Shown here: in pieces, positions 2,436-5,876 of the stretch | Layout of the letters: each line of letters begins with the position of its first letter | Numbering within the stretch: position 1 is the stretch's first letter | IMG/VR virus record: IMGVR_UViG_3300045988_022706 | DNA: 5,876 bases | Source: a virus | Direction: 5' to 3' (one strand) | Translations under genes and position numbers: made by a program | Notes under the pieces: model-generated | Told to the model about the DNA's origin: nothing | Seen by the model: the letters and a program-made list of their open reading frames with translations, nothing else | Database searches by the model: none

Positions 2436-2709
2436 TGGTTGTCTCCTTCAGGTCGATTAGCCGTGCGATGTGTTCAGGCATTGCTTCGCTCATGTAGCCG
2501 GTTTCTGTGTCGAACTCACCCAGTTCTACGAGCGAAATATCTTCGATTTCACTCGGTTTGCTTTCGTTGGCCTTCCATCGTGCCGTTCGGACTGCCTGTG
2601 CCCTGTTGTTCTGCAGAAACGGCTGAGAGTAGCCGTTGGTCAATGCATCGTGGAATGAATAGAATTTCAGTTTCATGTTTTTCCCCTTACTCTTTGTCTT
2701 TGTTTGCAT
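2422..2709 (-). CDS. Hypothetical protein, 95 aa from the ATG at 2707-2709. The more likely start is the internal ATG at 2674-2676 (84 aa, MKLKFYSF...), which is preceded by AAGGGG at a 4-nt spacing. It contains a ...SLVELGEFDTETG... segment and may be a VP3/VP5-like accessory protein, but this is unassigned.
   Basis: The ORF is in the gene-strand orientation and is packed tightly against its neighbours with overlaps. A Shine-Dalgarno-like AAGGGG lies at 2681-2686. Confidence 0.5.
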   Translation of the reverse strand: MQTKTKSKGKNMKLKFYSFHDALTNGYSQPFLQNNRAQAVRTARWKANESKPSEIEDISLVELGEFDTETGYMSEAMPEHIARLIDLKETTNVKS

Positions 2710-2803
2710 CCTTCAGTGCGTGGTAGATTTCGTCGAGCTTTTCAAGGATGTTCATCATCAGTGCAATTGCTTCCCTAACGTCCTTGACCTTGATTAATGC
2801 CAT
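2687..2803 (-). CDS. Small 38-aa ORF (MALIKVKDVREAIALMMNILEKLDEIYHALKDANKDKE). It is predicted to be helical and is not in the ORF track because of the size cut-off.
   Basis: Manual translation gives an ATG at 2801-2803 preceded by GAAGG at a 6-nt spacing. The TAA stop at 2687-2689 sits immediately before the SD and ATG of the next gene, a pattern typical of translational coupling. Confidence 0.3.
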   Translation of the reverse strand: MALIKVKDVREAIALMMNILEKLDEIYHALKDANKDKE

Positions 2804-2952: not shown

Positions 2953-3354
2953 TTACACCCCCTTTCTGTATTTTTTCTCGGTTCGCACATCAAAGTGCAC
3001 CCAAGTGTTGTATACGATAATGCCGCATTCATCCGGGACGATTTCATTCAGTTTGTTTGCAAGTTCTTTTGCGCTCATGCCATTGACCCGGATATCTGCT
3101 GCCATACCGCACATGTGGTAGCTGTATTTTGCTCCGTTGCATTTTTTGTTCCACTCTGGTGTTCTGTATCCGCTGTTTATGTGTACTGGCTTTCCAATTT
3201 TGTTTCTTAGAATGTCAAGTATCGACACCAAGTGGTCGTCTACATAAACCACTTGTGAACCGTCTTTACATGCAAATTCTTGTACTTTAAAGTGCTGTCC
3301 TATTTTTTTGTTTGCTTCTTTGTCCATGATATAGCATTTAATCATCTTTGTCAA
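2953..3354 (-). CDS. Peptidase M15 family zinc D-Ala-D-Ala carboxypeptidase-like cell-wall hydrolase, the likely lysis enzyme. The track ORF begins at a TTG at 3352-3354; the more likely start is the ATG at 3343-3345, preceded by AAAGGAGA, giving a 130-aa protein.
   Basis: The protein carries the motifs F-KVQEFACKDG, SGYRTPEWN, HMCGMAADI and WVHFD, which are characteristic of the peptidase_M15_3 zinc-binding H/D/H triad. Confidence 0.85.
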   Translation of the reverse strand: MTKMIKCYIMDKEANKKIGQHFKVQEFACKDGSQVVYVDDHLVSILDILRNKIGKPVHINSGYRTPEWNKKCNGAKYSYHMCGMAADIRVNGMSAKELANKLNEIVPDECGIIVYNTWVHFDVRTEKKYRKGV

Positions 3355-3562: not shown

Positions 3563-3591
3563 ATTTTATCATTTTTTTTAAAAAAAGTCAA
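3563..3591 (-). promoter_or_regulatory. Sigma70-type promoter on the viral strand: -35 TTGACT (3586-3591), a 17-nt spacer, and an extended -10 TGATAAAAT (-10 hexamer 3563-3568, TG at 3570-3571). It is preceded by an A8 UP-like tract (3593-3600).
   Basis: The motif was read directly on the reverse complement. The spacing and the hexamers match the consensus at 5/6 and 5/6 positions, and an extended -10 TG is present. The predicted transcription start is about 20 nt before the ATG of the 65-aa ORF. Confidence 0.6.
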
Positions 3592-3724: not shown

Positions 3725-4729
3725 TCATGCTTTTGGTTCACGCCACTTTTGCTTTAGCTTGTCTTTTTCTTTTTGAATGTTGAGATACGTTTCGTAATCT
3801 ACGCTTGTGCTCTGTTCGAGATTGACTAAACTTTGTATTGCGCTGCGTCTACGTTTGGCTCTAACCTCTCTCAGCTCGTCAGAATGTGCTCTAAAATAGC
3901 TTTCTGTGTCTTGGCTGGTATCTTTATCTAGAATCTTATCAAAATAGCGTGGAGGCCTTTTCTCGCGTCCTCCTGCGCATATGATGCTATCTGTTTTTAG
4001 GATTTCATCTTTGTGTTCGTTTAGATACTTTTCGCCGATGCCTTTTGACATGATTCTAAATTCAGGTTCTCTACCTTCCATCCAGTATTTTGCCGCTTGC
4101 TCTGCACCTATGGCTTTTTTGTTGACGTACTGTGCCACGTATGCAAAACTTCCTGGTTGTGCTGGTGAAAAGTCTATCATGCCTTTGCCCCAGATTTTTT
4201 GTAACCATTCCGACTTGAAATAGCTATTTCCTTTTTGGTTTTTATACCATTGTGCATCCGGTGGCTTTAATCCGAATACTATTGCATGATAGTGCGGTCT
4301 TTTTGTTCTGTCGCCGTATTCAGCCGCTAGGAAGTATTTTATCGGTTTCTTGTATGCTTTTCGTAGCCGTTTTATAAACAGCTGTACGTCTCGCTTATTC
4401 ACTGTCTGGCTTTGAATGCTTCTGTAGCCTTTGAGAATCTCGCCGTATGGGATGTGCTCATCATCATATGTCAGTGTTAGAAAAATCACATCGTCCCACT
4501 CTTTGGCCTCTAGCTCTATTCTGGTTGCCCATTGTTCAGCCATTTGTTTCCGGCAATATTCGCACTTACCACATGGTAACAATGCGAATTTTCCTTTTTT
4601 GATTCCGTCCATGATGTCTGCTTGCAGTCCTTGCTTGGATAGGTTTTCTAGACTTCCCCACAGTTGTGGTTTTTTCGTGTCCATCTGAAATACTAATGGT
4701 TTTGTACATGGCATTTTTGTTACCGGCAC
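3725..4729 (-). CDS. VP4: Microviridae replication initiation protein VP4 (A-like HUH rolling-circle endonuclease). The track start is a GTG at 4727-4729; an ATG at 4712-4714 is an alternative start.
   Basis: The 334-aa protein carries a C-x2-C-x2-C motif in CGKCEYC, motif I FLTLTYDD, the HUH motif PHYHAIVFG, and the double-tyrosine motif YVAQYVNKK. Confidence 0.93.
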   Translation of the reverse strand: MPVTKMPCTKPLVFQMDTKKPQLWGSLENLSKQGLQADIMDGIKKGKFALLPCGKCEYCRKQMAEQWATRIELEAKEWDDVIFLTLTYDDEHIPYGEILKGYRSIQSQTVNKRDVQLFIKRLRKAYKKPIKYFLAAEYGDRTKRPHYHAIVFGLKPPDAQWYKNQKGNSYFKSEWLQKIWGKGMIDFSPAQPGSFAYVAQYVNKKAIGAEQAAKYWMEGREPEFRIMSKGIGEKYLNEHKDEILKTDSIICAGGREKRPPRYFDKILDKDTSQDTESYFRAHSDELREVRAKRRRSAIQSLVNLEQSTSVDYETYLNIQKEKDKLKQKWREPKA

Positions 4730-4756
4730 AAGCTTCCTTGTCTATCTTGTGCCGGT
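4722..4756. promoter_or_regulatory. 11-bp perfect inverted repeat ACCGGCACAAG / CTTGTGCCGGT with a 13-nt spacer, straddling the annotated VP4 start codon. The SD-like AAGGAAG of the mRNA falls in the loop.
   Basis: 4722-4732 is the reverse complement of 4746-4756. A regulatory role in VP4 translation or transcription is inferred. Confidence 0.4.
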
Positions 4757-4790
4757 TGACACCTCGCTTTCTTTTTATATTAACTTGTTG

Positions 4791-4808
4791 TAGTAGTAGT
4801 AGTAGTAG
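4791..4808. repeat. (TAG)6 trinucleotide microsatellite, which reads (CTA)6 on the viral strand, in the region upstream of VP4.
   Basis: The sequence tagtagtagtagtagtag was read directly. Confidence 0.9.
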
Positions 4809-4977
4809 TGTTGAAAGTGTTGAAAACTCGTTTTTTTAACGTTATTACGTTTAATTATTGCCTTTTTCTATGTTGAAAACTTTGTTGAAAACTTGTTGAA
4901 TTGTTGAATGTTCGTCATTTTGACGAATTTCTTTGTGCAACTTGTTGTTGAAAACCTGTTGAAAGTGTTGAAAACTC
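4809..4977. repeat. Array of nine GTTGAA(A/T) iteron-like repeats in three clusters (starts 4810, 4819; 4872, 4884, 4895, 4903; 4947, 4958, 4967) with spacings of roughly 8-12 bp. It is bounded by a 21-bp perfect direct repeat TGTTGAAAGTGTTGAAAACTC (4809-4829 and 4957-4977). A 7-bp palindrome TTCGTCA-TTT-TGACGAA (4911-4927) sits between clusters.
   Basis: All repeat copies were located by direct reading. The near-helical phasing and A-tract content suggest protein-binding iterons and/or intrinsically curved DNA, which would fit an origin or control region. Confidence 0.8.
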
Positions 4978-5017
4978 AAGTTTTCCACATTCTCTATTTT
5001 CTGGATTATTGTTTCTT

Positions 5018-5054
5018 TGCGCGTGTGTGCACGTTTCGTGCGCGCGCGCGTATA
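5018..5054. repeat. Two strictly alternating purine-pyrimidine tracts, tgcgcgtgtgtgcacgt (5018-5034) and gtgcgcgcgcgcgtata (5038-5054, including (GC)5G). These are Z-DNA-prone and CpG-rich.
   Basis: Read directly. Both tracts are at least 17 nt of uninterrupted purine/pyrimidine alternation. Confidence 0.8.
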
Positions 5055-5115
5055 GTGATAATAGACTGTTTGCCTTACTGCAGCGGCAGCCACCCGCGTA
5101 GGGGGGCGTGACGCA

Positions 5116-5148
5116 AGGGGGGTCGCAAACCAATCTTGCGACCCCCCT
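5116..5148. other. Perfect 13-bp GC-rich hairpin AGGGGGGTCGCAA-(ACCAATC)-TTGCGACCCCCCT. A second G6 tract lies upstream at 5101-5106. It sits in the VP2 3' region and noncoding DNA, and is a candidate ssDNA structural element (complementary-strand origin, packaging signal or transcript 3' structure).
   Basis: 5116-5128 is the exact reverse complement of 5136-5148, with a 7-nt loop. The hairpin is not followed by a U-tract on either strand. Confidence 0.6.
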
Positions 5149-5229
5149 CTTCTATACATGATTTTGTTTTGGTTGCCGCTTGTCTGGTGTCCCCTGTGTT
5201 GGGGAAACCTTAGCTTTGCGCGGAAAGGG

Positions 5230-5876
5230 TTAATCTCCTTTGTACGGTTCTCCAGATTTGAACCCATCAATTAGTTTGCGTCTTCTTGCTGTCTTGTCGA
5301 TAGTATCTTTAGCTACTTTGTCAATGCCTCCTTTGGCTGCTTTACCAGCCTTTTTTACTGCGTCTTTCGCTGCTTTGCCTGCTCCTGCAAGGCCTGCGCC
5401 TAACTTGTTAGCTGCATAGCTGTACTGTTGCGCCTGTTTTGCGCTTGAGGTTGCCAGCTCGCTTGCTGCCTGTTCCCAGCTTTTCGCATTCTTAAACTGT
5501 TTTGCGCTGGTGGCCTGTTTTGCCAGCTGTAAGTATTTGTCTGCTAGCTCTGCTGTGTTGTTGCCGTATTCGTACATAGCGCTTACACTTGCAGCCTGTG
5601 CGCTCTGCTGGTTATAACGTTGGTTTCCAATGCTTGCTGATGCTCCGCTTGTTGACGCTGTTGCACCGTTGGTTGCTGCCAGAATAGGATTGATTCCCGC
5701 TGCAATCATGTCCTTCACGGTATCTTGATACGCTGTCCCGCGCATTTCCTTCTGAAATGCTCGTTCCGCTGCTGCTTCTGCGCTGTTGTACTTCTTGGCG
5801 CTTGCTTGGCTTCCAGCATTTGCAAGGTTGCTCAGTAGTCCGCTCATCATTTGCAGTGCGTTTGCGGTGTTTACGC
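5230..5876 (-). CDS. VP2: Minor capsid / DNA pilot protein VP2: the C-terminal 206 aa plus 26 nt of upstream in-frame sequence. The ORF continues past the window end into positions 56-281 through circular closure.
   Basis: The conserved pilot-protein block ...AAAERAFQKEMRGTAYQDTVKDMIAAGINPILA... is present, together with Gly/Ala/Lys-rich low-complexity repeats such as AGKAAKDAVKKAGKAAKGG. These features, and the gene's position after VP1, are typical of microvirus VP2. Confidence 0.85.
   Translation of the reverse strand, partial: VNTANALQMMSGLLSNLANAGSQASAKKYNSAEAAAERAFQKEMRGTAYQDTVKDMIAAGINPILAATNGATASTSGASASIGNQRYNQQSAQAASVSAMYEYGNNTAELADKYLQLAKQATSAKQFKNAKSWEQAASELATSSAKQAQQYSYAANKLGAGLAGAGKAAKDAVKKAGKAAKGGIDKVAKDTIDKTARRRKLIDGFKSGEPYKGD

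Follow-up and report, generated by a model that had tools for sequence, protein, structure and literature searches.

Which protein is served by a tandem array of short direct repeats in the genome of a gokushovirus? The window analysed here (the whole stretch of DNA, 5,876 nucleotides) is a complete circular microvirus genome of 5821 bp plus a 55-bp terminal overlap, with all genes on the minus strand, and the array lies between VP2 and VP4. An earlier note had described nine copies of GTTGAA(A/T) in three clusters and likened them to the iterons of an HUH-Rep origin. The count is correct: GTTGAAW occurs nine times in the window, always on the plus strand and always inside 4810-4973, versus a chance expectation of 1.86, and shuffled sequences never exceeded six copies (nine reached in 0 of 200 shuffles). 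The spacings within clusters, given as 8-12 bp, are likewise as described, with start-to-start distances of 9 bp in the first cluster, 12, 11 and 8 bp in the second, and 11 and 9 bp in the third; gaps of 53 and 44 bp separate the clusters. Our preferred reading, to which we give a probability of about 0.68, is that the array consists of about ten DnaA boxes which, together with DnaA-trios and an A/T stretch, make up a virus-borne copy of the basal unwinding system (BUS) found in bacterial chromosome origins, the Firmicute type being most alike.

The array stands as first described, and it is the repeat unit that has to be redrawn. The unit is a 9-mer, TGTTGAAAA/G, that begins one base earlier than GTTGAA(A/T), with starts at 4809, 4818, 4871, 4883, 4894, 4902, 4946, 4957 and 4966. 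A matrix built from 1015 sites gives T1 (91%), G2, T3, K4 (T 87%, G 13%), G5, A6, W7 (A or T 99.8%), A8 (83%) and A9 (50%), which equals TGTGNAWAA with G4 changed to T. The repeats thus look like a variant DnaA box with the full unit TGT(T/G)GA(A/T)AA. Variation among relatives points the same way. In unseeded alignment columns (108 modules x 9 boxes), position 4 is T or G and never C, the T/G variation being clear at five of the nine homologous boxes and confounded by alignment shifts at two more, and position 7 is only A or T in the seven boxes free of such shifts. The 4883 box is the canonical TGTGGATAA instead of TGTTGAAAA in 23 of 108 modules, and the 4946 box is TGTGGAAAA, which reads TTTTCCACA on the other strand, in about 40 of 108, with a G as its fourth base in 46 of 108 relatives. 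Summed over the 108 modules, 96 perfect TTWTNCACA boxes are co-oriented with the array, although the genomes are related and these variant-box counts do not represent independent events. The modules were collected with a 17-mer inside the 18-mer ACTTGTTGAATTGTTGAA of cluster 2, and the 18-mer is found in 108 of 108. In the window most boxes have T at position 4 versus the consensus G; none of the co-oriented boxes is perfect, and the sole perfect box (4981-4989) is reversed.

Boxes with this substitution have precedents. TT(T/A)TCAACA is described as a DnaA-box motif of mollicutes (PMC3322544), a DoriC motif for Lawsonia (PMC2671203) and a variant box of phage T5 (bioRxiv 10.1101/866236). The predicted oriC boxes of Ruminococcus albus 7 read TGTTGAAAA-ACC-TGTTGAAAA, and Streptococcus pasteurianus has TGTTGATAA beside perfect trios (both Table S1, PMC8287927).

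With the unit so defined, the locus can be laid out as follows, the functional names being those suggested by the sequence.

4768..4790, plus strand: A/T-rich stretch on the far side of the trios from the boxes, candidate for a DNA-unwinding element
4791..4808, plus strand: putative DnaA-trio array (TAG)6, that is, 3'-GAT-5' repeats, of which five trios (4791-4805) are conserved
4809..4817, plus strand: putative trio-proximal DnaA box TGTTGAAAG, the weaker box, followed in tandem by a second one of the same orientation; comparable to box #7 of B. subtilis
4818..4826, plus strand: putative second DnaA box TGTTGAAAA, with 1 mismatch to TGTGNAWAA and 2 to TGTGGATAA; analogous to box #6
4828..4870, no strand assigned: spacer 1, 77% AT, with the conserved segment TTTTTAACG
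4871..4910, plus strand: putative DnaA-box cluster 2, four co-oriented boxes at 4871 (TGTTGAAAA), 4883 (TGTTGAAAA), 4894 (TGTTGAATT) and 4902 (TGTTGAATG)
4911..4927, no strand assigned: small palindrome in spacer 2, apparently accessory, conserved in position and not in sequence
4932..4942, plus strand: conserved TTTGTGCAAC(T), holding a degenerate co-oriented box TGTGCAACT with 2 mismatches; alignment conservation about 0.7-0.8
4946..4974, plus strand: putative DnaA-box cluster 3, boxes at 4946 (TGTTGAAAA), 4957 (TGTTGAAAG) and 4966 (TGTTGAAAA)
4981..4989, minus strand: putative tenth box, a perfect consensus reading TTTTCCACA on the plus strand, opposite in orientation to the array

The unit had previously been bounded at 4809-4977, and its left edge must be moved outward, since the unit also takes in (TAG)6 at 4791-4808 and the tract at 4768-4790. 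The 21-bp direct repeat that was said to bound it, TGTTGAAAGTGTTGAAAACTC, is exact at 4809-4829 and 4957-4977, and simply reflects the match of box pair 1 to the final two boxes in cluster 3. This repeat is specific to the clade of the window: a repeat of at least 18 bp is present in 24 of 36 window-clade modules versus 1 of 72 elsewhere. The 148-bp deletion that such flanking repeats had been proposed to mediate was not seen among 49 genomes of the clade sampled by VP4 alone, 47 of which retain the module. The tenth box and the last box of the array form an imperfect inverted repeat (4961-4976 / 4979-4994), and this box too is restricted in its distribution (25 of 36 window-clade modules, 0 of 72 others).

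Published BUS rules can be compared with this layout directly. They specify trios of consensus 3'-GAT-5' (NAN), at least three of them, 0-16 bp from a box that has at most 2 mismatches to the consensus or, for a pair of boxes, at most 2 and at most 4 (PMC8287927). In the window, the box at 4818-4826 has 2 mismatches to TGTGGATAA and that at 4809-4817 has 3, and six perfect TAG trios lie at a spacer of 9 from the better box (4818). At the 4809-4817 position relatives have TGTGGAAAA, AGTGGAAAA or TGTTGAAAT, and among relatives boxes with 0 mismatches occur in this pair. When the rule is applied with TAG trios, exactly one site in the genome, that of the 4818 box, satisfies it (at most 2 mismatches, spacer 9, 6 trios); applied laxly with any NAN trio, it returns 7 matches versus 4.1 in shuffles. 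Strict scoring against TGTGGATAA passes only 68 of the 108 modules.

The BUS also has a fixed polarity. On the strand that shows 5'-TGTGGATAA-3', the trios come before the boxes, on their 5' side, as 5'-TAG-3', and reversing boxes #6/#7 inactivates incC (PMC6669920). The B. subtilis order is 5'-AT-rich-(TAG TAG AAG TAA TAG TAG)-GGCC-TGTGGATT-TGTGGATAA-3' (Table S1 of PMC8287927, which is written 3'->5' and was read accordingly). In the window the plus strand runs 5'-AT-rich-(TAG)6-TGTTGAAAG-TGTTGAAAA-3', and every aligned module with both parts recognisable shows the same polarity. The E. coli row of that table, which we take to be the R1 box with its oriC flank, backs the direction of reading. 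The order in relatives is (TAG)5-GGAG/GGGC/GCAA-TGTGGAAA-AGTTGAAAA, with a 4-bp gap and an 8-bp box spacing. Spacing within the tandem pair is 9 bp in the window; in the far clade it is 8 bp, like that of B. subtilis and S. aureus. A BUS also has a gap of about 4 bp that is often GC-rich. The far clade shows such a 4-bp gap (GGAG, GGGC, GCAA and others), which has no GC-rich counterpart in the window, where a sixth TAG (4806-4808) occupies the place of the relatives' 3-4 bp G-rich gap.

The five trios are nearly invariant across the 108 diverged modules. All three positions are conserved at 94% or more in the first three trios counted from the boxes and in the outermost trio, and trio 2 alone varies, its middle A being C in 51 of 108. 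In 614 kb, runs of (TAG) with at least three units occur 97 times at the module position, twice elsewhere and never on the other strand. Distal to the trios, the A/T tract has two parts, a W-only core TTTTTATATT (4772-4781) and then a near-invariant TAACTTGTTG (4781-4790). Columns 4772-4780 are almost only A or T in the 108 modules, with A and T interchanging, and columns 4781-4790 are usually conserved at 94% or more (4782 is 73% A). The 25-nt window from 4765 is 76% AT, the 96.6th percentile of the genome. In the window the tract covers about 10-20 bp, less than the 27-mer of B. subtilis, and TAACTTGTTG interrupts it. The conservation of TAACTTGTTG, as a separate observation, exceeds what a plain unwinding element needs.

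The BUS of B. subtilis oriC (incC boxes #6/#7 plus trios), with its predicted Firmicute counterparts, is the closest known system (PMC8287927, PMC6669920, PMC10721633). In both, TAG-type trios (at least three of them box-proximal), a short gap and tandem co-oriented boxes 8-9 bp apart follow one another in the same order and orientation, and further boxes lie at a distance in either orientation; the A/T-rich stretch ahead of the trios may correspond to the unwinding region. The trio tract of C. difficile oriC2 (the complement of 5'-CACCTACTACTATTACTACTATGA-3'), TAG TAG TAA TAG TAG TAG GTG, nearly matches that of the module, TAG T(A/C)G TAG TAG TAG GGAG. In contrast to the Firmicute BUS, the module is carried on a 5.8-kb ssDNA phage genome, away from dnaA/dnaN; its boxes are mostly TGTTGAAAA and not TGTGGATAA; its A/T tract is short; the window clade has a sixth TAG for the GC gap, and the extra near-invariant TAACTTGTTG; and the phage also encodes its own HUH Rep. 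Placed as it is between VP2 and VP4 of a microvirus, the element does not qualify as a chromosomal oriC; judging from its layout, it is probably like an oriC module in its working, and is not an oriC.

The search for the motif in related microviruses that the earlier note had asked for was strongly positive. The module, about 200 bp long, is present in more than 160 gokushovirus genomes, and the trio-plus-box pattern finds at least 57 further microvirus genomes beyond the 108 modules. Its conservation is patterned, with boxes and trios at 90% or more and spacers at 40-70%, and the module reaches 96% and 93.5% identity in relatives that share about 87% identity over the whole genome. The same boxes accompany VP4 (Rep) proteins of only 33-46% identity and VP1 proteins of about 40%. 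TTGACA-17-TATAAT promoters and GGAGG ribosome-binding sites lie downstream of the module in relatives, in keeping with a Firmicute host. A scan of genome contigs for a bacterial copy of the module, using a 22-mer, returned only one 5.4-kb contig of a metagenome-assembled genome, which therefore offers neither a sign of integration nor a clue to the host.

Binding of DnaA need not imply an origin. The array might instead act as a DnaA sink or as a DnaA-responsive control of phage genes, a reading that draws on the same box evidence and that we consider unlikely, if the least so of the alternatives. DnaA is also a transcription factor, and in the far clade a strong sigma-A-type promoter follows 100-190 bp downstream of the module. 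However, the intergenic region of the window clade has no promoter-like site, the equivalent promoter being at 3591..3563, and neither a sink nor an operator needs the exact BUS register of the trios, the conserved gap or the A/T tract. The related suggestion that the repeats are operator sites for the Rep promoter likewise lacks support: no sigma-70-like site was found in 4600-5350 (the best minus-strand promoter is again that at 3591..3563), and in most relatives the module lies downstream of VP4.

The earlier proposal of an origin of the HUH-Rep type has to be divided, since the origin character survives, and the orientation of the module, the identity of the Rep and the palindrome all speak against that type. 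It would make the repeats iterons of VP4 (Rep) in a rolling-circle origin, with a nick in the nearby hairpin. The parallels with the iteron and stem-loop origins of CRESS-DNA viruses, geminiviruses and rolling-circle plasmids are real: direct repeats spaced by about one helical turn, a small palindrome and an adjoining rep, with the repeats in the main non-coding region beside the rep gene in every genome. To our knowledge the gokushovirus origin has never been mapped experimentally, which also leaves room for this reading. In those origins the orientation is fixed with respect to the nicked strand. The module, by contrast, faces either way on the packaged (coding) strand depending on the lineage, being antisense and upstream of VP4 in 37 cases, sense and downstream in 68, and antisense and downstream in 4. 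In a recombinant genome (L238) with a 97%-identical VP4, the module has the opposite orientation and position, and a flipped module beside the same Rep speaks against iterons of the strand-specific HUH-Rep kind. Co-variation of iterons with the Rep is the norm, as established for geminiviruses, circoviruses and plasmids, whereas here the box family is identical across Reps at 33-46% identity.

The palindrome does not rescue this reading. TTCGTCA-TTT-TGACGAA is present at 4911-4927, as had been reported, and a stem of at least 5 bp lies between the clusters in 79 of 108 modules versus 11 of 108 shuffled spacers; in the other 29 the stem is 4 bp or less. There are, though, two unrelated types, TTCGTCA/TGACGAA and TGCACAAA/TTTGTGCA, with loops of TTT, TTA, AAA or ACCA, so that a conserved stem-loop with a nick motif is lacking. 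In relatives, the segment at 4932-4942 supplies the right-hand arm of the second type. In phiX174 the origin is 30 bp inside gene A, with a nick at CAACTTG|ATA. Like the module it is a replication element of a microvirus, and the string AACTTG recurs in the module at 4782, 4888 and 4939; unlike the module it has no known iterons or DnaA boxes. We rejected AACTTG as a phiX-like nick motif because it flips strand with the module and derives from the box flank (GAAAAC-TTG-TTGAA), leaving no consistent site on the viral strand. Recognition by Rep also leaves the (TAG)n tract and the interchange with canonical DnaA boxes unexplained, and we regard it as very improbable. A separate hairpin at 4722-4763 on the minus strand, whose strand is constant and which travels with the Rep type, is a candidate for a distinct strand-specific Rep site.

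Less probable still is an array of Spo0A boxes, in which the sporulation regulator Spo0A~P would bind sites of the TGTTGAA type and so silence the phage when its host sporulates; silencing of this kind is reported for phi29. TGTCGAA, the Spo0A box, differs from TGTTGAA at a single base and is similar to DnaA boxes. Overlapping Spo0A boxes are present in B. subtilis oriC (PMC5295017). Against this, position 4 of the array boxes is never C and alternates with G, the DnaA base; a fit to TGNCGAA is limited to TGACGAA, in the arms of the palindrome of the window; and the trios would be unexplained. Spo0A could act as a secondary binder, as at oriC.

That the module is a selfish or neutral mobile cassette, without phage function and alike only through recent horizontal transfer, might account for its changes of position and orientation between lineages and for its movement with a promoter-M15 block in the recombinant (the M15 peptidase is also 77-83% identical across clades). 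We give this equally little weight in view of the patterned conservation, the A/T interchange in the A/T tract, the closer similarity of near relatives in the module than in their coding genome, its retention in genomes sampled independently of it, and an unsystematic reading of the flanks that showed neither terminal inverted repeats nor target duplications.

Several other candidates were set aside. Rfam gave no match to a structured RNA anywhere in the window at E<=1. All three plus-strand frames of the module are closed by TAG and TGA stops, and the minus-strand ORF at 4851..5270 has no Pfam match and is not syntenic in relatives. Large viral contigs with the 17-mer (L026, L044 and others) are chance matches in unrelated sequence, without the array. 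The resemblance of spacer 1 to an XerCD/dif-like site is weak by eye, and CodY, CcpA, LytTR and OmpR-type motifs match poorly. As for a small DNA-binding protein encoded by the phage, the two small ORFs tested (65 and 80 aa) match no Pfam or PHROG family, and M15, which is missing from many carriers, is the one phage protein that keeps its similarity from clade to clade. Our literature search found no paper linking Microviridae or microviruses with DnaA boxes, DnaA-trios or iterons.

A BUS-like module in a phage suggests that gut microviruses recruit the host initiator DnaA. Boxes that stay alike beside diverged Rep and VP1 proteins point to a host factor and not to one of the phage, and the occurrence of both orientations, also with the same Rep in L238, points to action on double-stranded DNA. 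If the parts work as they do in bacteria, DnaA-ATP of the host would occupy the co-oriented TGT(T/G)GA(A/T)AA boxes on the double-stranded replicative form (RF), with the distal boxes (4871-4910, 4946-4974 and 4981-4989) raising local DnaA occupancy. The tandem pair at 4809-4826 would pass a DnaA oligomer onto the (TAG)n strand at 4791-4808, which the oligomer would stretch, melting the adjoining A/T tract at 4768-4790. The bubble might then load the host replicative helicase and primosome (DnaD/DnaB/DnaI in a Firmicute), so that host machinery could replicate or prime the RF with no need of the strand-specific VP4 nick. We infer binding, unwinding, helicase loading and a benefit to the phage from the likeness to bacterial origins. 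What use is made of the opened DNA is conjecture, given that we know of no need for DnaA in phiX174-type microviruses. One tentative possibility is a portable second origin dependent on the host initiator, in which DnaA would open the RF and the host helicase would load there for theta-style replication in the manner of a DnaA-controlled mini-chromosome, and the HUH Rep would serve only to make the packaged single strands from a separate strand-specific site, for which the 4722-4763 hairpin is the candidate.

Other mobile elements offer partial parallels. A named variant box, TTATCAACA, lies in the first-step-transfer region of T5 (bioRxiv 10.1101/866236). Phages and plasmids of this sort use consensus and variant boxes to draw on the DnaA of their host, as the module may do. 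The origins of P1, F, RK2 and pSC101 and the DnaA-box hairpin 'A site' of the ABC-primosome all use DnaA boxes, and the plasmid origins depend on their own Rep to open the DNA. We know of none among these, T5 included, that combines boxes with a trio tract in BUS geometry.

Microviridae are the textbook case of phage-encoded rolling-circle replication. If our reading of the module is correct, abundant phages of human and animal guts would depend on the host initiator, and this dependence may explain their long persistence without integrases. Should the module indeed be a second origin, it would allow a carrier or episomal state tied to the host cell cycle, again without integration. The BUS would be a transferable module that works outside chromosomes, and the box variant TGTTGAAAA, predicted in the oriC of Ruminococcus albus, would be a new handle on the hosts of uncultured microviruses.

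The 5876 bases of the window represent a complete gokushovirus genome, circular and 5821 bp long, plus a terminal overlap of 55 bp; its nearest GenBank records are human-gut gokushoviruses at ~87% identity. All of its genes lie on the minus strand, and the repeat array sits in a ~500-bp non-coding stretch that separates VP2 from VP4, the phage Rep.

Genes and other features of the window genome
1993..320, minus strand: VP1
across the sequence ends, stop at 5230, minus strand: VP2
start 4729 or 4714, end 3725, minus strand: VP4/Rep
3354..2953, minus strand: M15 peptidase
also encoded, minus strand: VP5 and VP3
4763..4722, minus strand: hairpin H1, GGTGTCA and then an 11-bp stem (4746-4756/4722-4732)
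3591..3563, minus strand: TTGACT-17-TAAAAT with TG, the best sigma-70/sigma-A-like promoter of the coding strand

The earlier note described nine copies of GTTGAA(A/T) around a palindrome and read them as iterons of a HUH-Rep-type origin. As a description this holds: the nine copies occur on the plus strand only and within 4810-4973 only (1.86 expected; at least nine in 0 of 200 shuffles), the three clusters and their 8-12-bp spacings are as given, the 21-bp direct repeat is exact, and the palindrome at 4911-4927 has the proposed 7/3/7 form. Absent from that description is a (TAG)6 tract at 4791-4808, which abuts the first box pair on its 5' side.

The full repeat unit is a 9-mer, with T at position 1 in 91%, A or T at position 7 in 99.8%, A at position 8 in 83% and A at position 9 in 50% of 1015 sites, counted at unconstrained positions. 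In unseeded alignment columns, position 4 is T or G and never C; position 7 is restricted to A or T in the seven boxes that alignment shifts do not affect. This pattern at positions 1, 4, 7, 8 and 9 identifies TGT(T/G)GA(A/T)AA as the DnaA-box consensus TTWTNCACA in reverse complement, its position-6 C often being A; TT(T/A)TCAACA is already counted among DnaA-box variants in the literature. Canonical boxes occur at array positions in relatives, TGTGGATAA at the 4883 box in 23 of 108 and TGTGGAAAA at the 4946 box in ~40 of 108, and perfect consensus boxes in the array's orientation number 96 over the 108 modules. The sole perfect box in the window, TTTTCCACA at 4981-4989, has the opposite orientation and forms with the last array box an imperfect inverted repeat (4961-4994, 13/16 pairs), found only in the window clade (25 of 36 modules). 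Folded as single-stranded DNA, this repeat would form a hairpin with a DnaA box in its stem, reminiscent of the 'A site' of the ABC primosome, a DnaA-box hairpin. For Ruminococcus albus 7, the BUS survey (Table S1, PMC8287927) predicts the oriC boxes TGTTGAAAA-ACC-TGTTGAAAA, which nearly equal window 4946-4965, TGTTGAAAA-CC-TGTTGAAAG, a likeness that offers a lead on the host lineage (Ruminococcaceae or other Clostridia).

DnaA-trios are single-strand DNA motifs onto which DnaA-ATP oligomerises from adjacent boxes, and 3'-GAT-5', which is TAG read 3' to 5', is the consensus trio (PMC8287927, PMC6669920, PMC10721633). The basal unwinding system (BUS) of bacterial oriC is defined by a box with at most 2 mismatches, to which a weaker one may be added in tandem, by a 0-16-bp spacer that includes a ~4-bp, often GC-rich gap, and by at least 3 NAN trios (PMC8287927). 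Because Table S1 of that survey runs 3' to 5', B. subtilis reads 5'-AT-rich-(TAG TAG AAG TAA TAG TAG)-GGCC-TGTGGATT-TGTGGATAA-3'. The window reads 5'-TTTTTATATTAACTTGTTG-(TAG)6-TGTTGAAAG-TGTTGAAAA-3', and its relatives read (TAG)5-GGAG/GGGC/GCAA-TGTGGAAA-AGTTGAAAA, where the gap is 4 bp and the boxes are spaced by 8 bp. The agreement with a B. subtilis-type BUS extends to order, polarity, tandem pairing, gap and trio number.

The BUS rule alone is lax (7 matches in the genome versus 4.1 in shuffles); what carries the assignment is therefore the geometry together with the trios, which are perfect and conserved. Once the trios have to be TAG, exactly one site in the genome satisfies the rule. 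Across 108 diverged modules, five TAG units are near-invariant, except that the second-most distal often reads TCG. In 614 kb of these genomes, runs of three or more TAGs number 97 at the module position, against two at other places and none on the opposite strand. Distal to the trios, columns 4772-4780 hold only A or T, and the two interchange, which suggests selection on composition, as expected of an unwinding element. Distal boxes of B. subtilis act at a distance and in either orientation, behaviour that clusters 2 (4871-4910) and 3 (4946-4974) and the inverted box at 4981-4989 fit. Taken together, the sequence evidence argues, with a probability of about 0.7, that the element is a DnaA box/trio unwinding module. 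Were it instead a DnaA sink or an operator with no unwinding role, trios in BUS register would not be needed, and the window's intergenic region contains no promoter-like site.

Queried with a 17-mer from cluster 2, IMG/VR returned at least 119 contigs, with 108 distinct microvirus modules; 13 large-contig matches were chance. A trio-plus-box pattern scan added at least 57 microvirus genomes with a homologous module, and boxes are in register across all modules compared. By BLAST, the 231-bp region is present in 37 GenBank gokushovirus records, several of which share with the window, at the DNA level, nothing else except the M15 gene. The module is 96% and 93.5% identical in close relatives, versus ~87% for whole genomes, and is kept in 47 of 49 genomes sampled by VP4 alone. 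A functionless mobile cassette is contradicted by the patterned conservation within the module and by its retention. M15 peptidase proteins are 77-83% identical between clades in which the identity of VP1 and VP4 is only 33-49%, which indicates recent exchange of the M15 gene and adjoining module between distant gokushoviruses with presumably shared hosts.

The promoter at 3591..3563 follows VP4 and precedes a 65-aa ORF and M15; its far-clade counterpart lies just downstream of the module. A 38-aa ORF (2687-2803, minus strand; MALIKVKDVREAIALMMNILEKLDEIYHALKD...) resembles a small ORF (...ILAMLDKIYHAVEG...) directly downstream of module and promoter in the far-clade contig L003, and the two may encode a conserved small protein. 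Non-microvirus viral contigs (L162, L126/L168, L191, L197, L155/L170, L187/L211, L175, L209, L225) carry (TAG)3-6, a 3-8-bp, often G-rich gap, and then box arrays in which TGTTGATAA is interspersed with canonical TGTGGATAA and TGTGGAAAA. In L162 and L126 the ORFs appear phage-like. BUS-type modules may be more widespread on phages; some of these contigs could be bacterial oriC fragments.

In the window clade (37 loci, VP4 >70% identical), the module sits on the upstream side of VP4, its GTTGAA copies being on the non-coding strand. In the distant clade (72 loci, VP4 33-46% and VP1 ~40% identical) it lies downstream, on the coding strand in 68 of 72 and the non-coding strand in 4. One contig, L238 (IMGVR_UViG_3300045988_015275), combines a window-type VP4 (97% identical) with a module that lies downstream of this gene and points the other way. 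It is a natural recombinant (1547-1940), with a far-clade block (BUS module, sigma-A-type promoter, M15 peptidase) in that place and a VP2-VP4 spacer shrunk to a G-rich hairpin and H1. The packaged strand of microviruses is the coding-sense strand, and variable orientation and position thus exclude a viral-strand nick or read site for the module, which by this pattern must act on double-stranded DNA with a partner not bound to Rep type. Rep iterons, with VP4 binding the repeats as the earlier note proposed, fail in turn: orientation varies, the repeats do not co-vary with Rep, and the hairpin among the repeats (4911-4927) is not conserved.

H1 is found in 97 of 109 genomes. Its stems covary, and its loop is conserved, reading ATAGACAAGGAAG in genomes of the window clade and CTATCAAGTAAG in those of the far clade. 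The flanking GGTGTCA is on the coding strand in all 97 and occurs once per genome, bar one chance second copy. Loop type follows VP4 type, and in L238 H1 stays with the window-type VP4 whereas the BUS module does not; of the two, H1 is the stronger candidate to be a Rep-cognate or single-strand element. In the window it overlaps the VP4 start and Shine-Dalgarno sequence, and it is also a candidate regulator of VP4 translation. Some relatives have a terminator-like T-run after H1.

In B. subtilis oriC, Spo0A boxes overlap with DnaA boxes (PMC5295017). The repeats are not Spo0A boxes (TGTCGAA), since C never occurs at their position 4; TGACGAA in the palindrome arms is the one fit. These arms, TTCGTCA/TGACGAA at 4911-4927, match the pattern TGNCGAA, inverted; in other lineages the palindrome at this position is an unrelated one, TGCACAAA/TTTGTGCA. 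A GC-rich alternating purine-pyrimidine palindrome at 5018-5052 (GCGCGTGTGTGCACGTTTCGTGCGCGCGCGCG), a candidate for Z-DNA or a cruciform, has counterparts in most relatives examined (L001, L002, L007, L014, L017 and L081; absent in L003), at varying positions relative to the module and often directly beside the A/T tract. After VP2, a perfect 13-bp G/C-rich hairpin (5116-5148, AGGGGGGTCGCAA/TTGCGACCCCCCT), with comparable G-rich hairpins in relatives, may be a terminator or a complementary-strand priming signal.

For the unwinding module we propose that host DnaA-ATP would fill the boxes on the double-stranded replicative form (RF), the pair at 4809-4826 would load a DnaA oligomer onto the TAG strand, and the adjoining A/T tract would melt. 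In Firmicutes the (CTA)n strand, complementary to the trios, carries TnnT repeats recognised by DnaD (PMC10201434), which makes helicase loading by the host pathway the natural next step. Just downstream of the module, relatives have promoters of the type TTGACA-17-TATAAT and ribosome-binding sites of the type GGAGG, consistent with a Firmicute host. The bubble could serve theta-type RF replication, priming or Rep access; we favour helicase loading and RF replication. Rep-independent theta-type RF replication is itself doubtful, and helicase loading at the opened site, in a broader sense, is somewhat likelier. Our search of the available literature library found no paper linking Microviridae or microviruses to DnaA boxes, DnaA-trios or iterons. 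The BUS module is of a known kind; what is new is its carrier and context, a microvirus.
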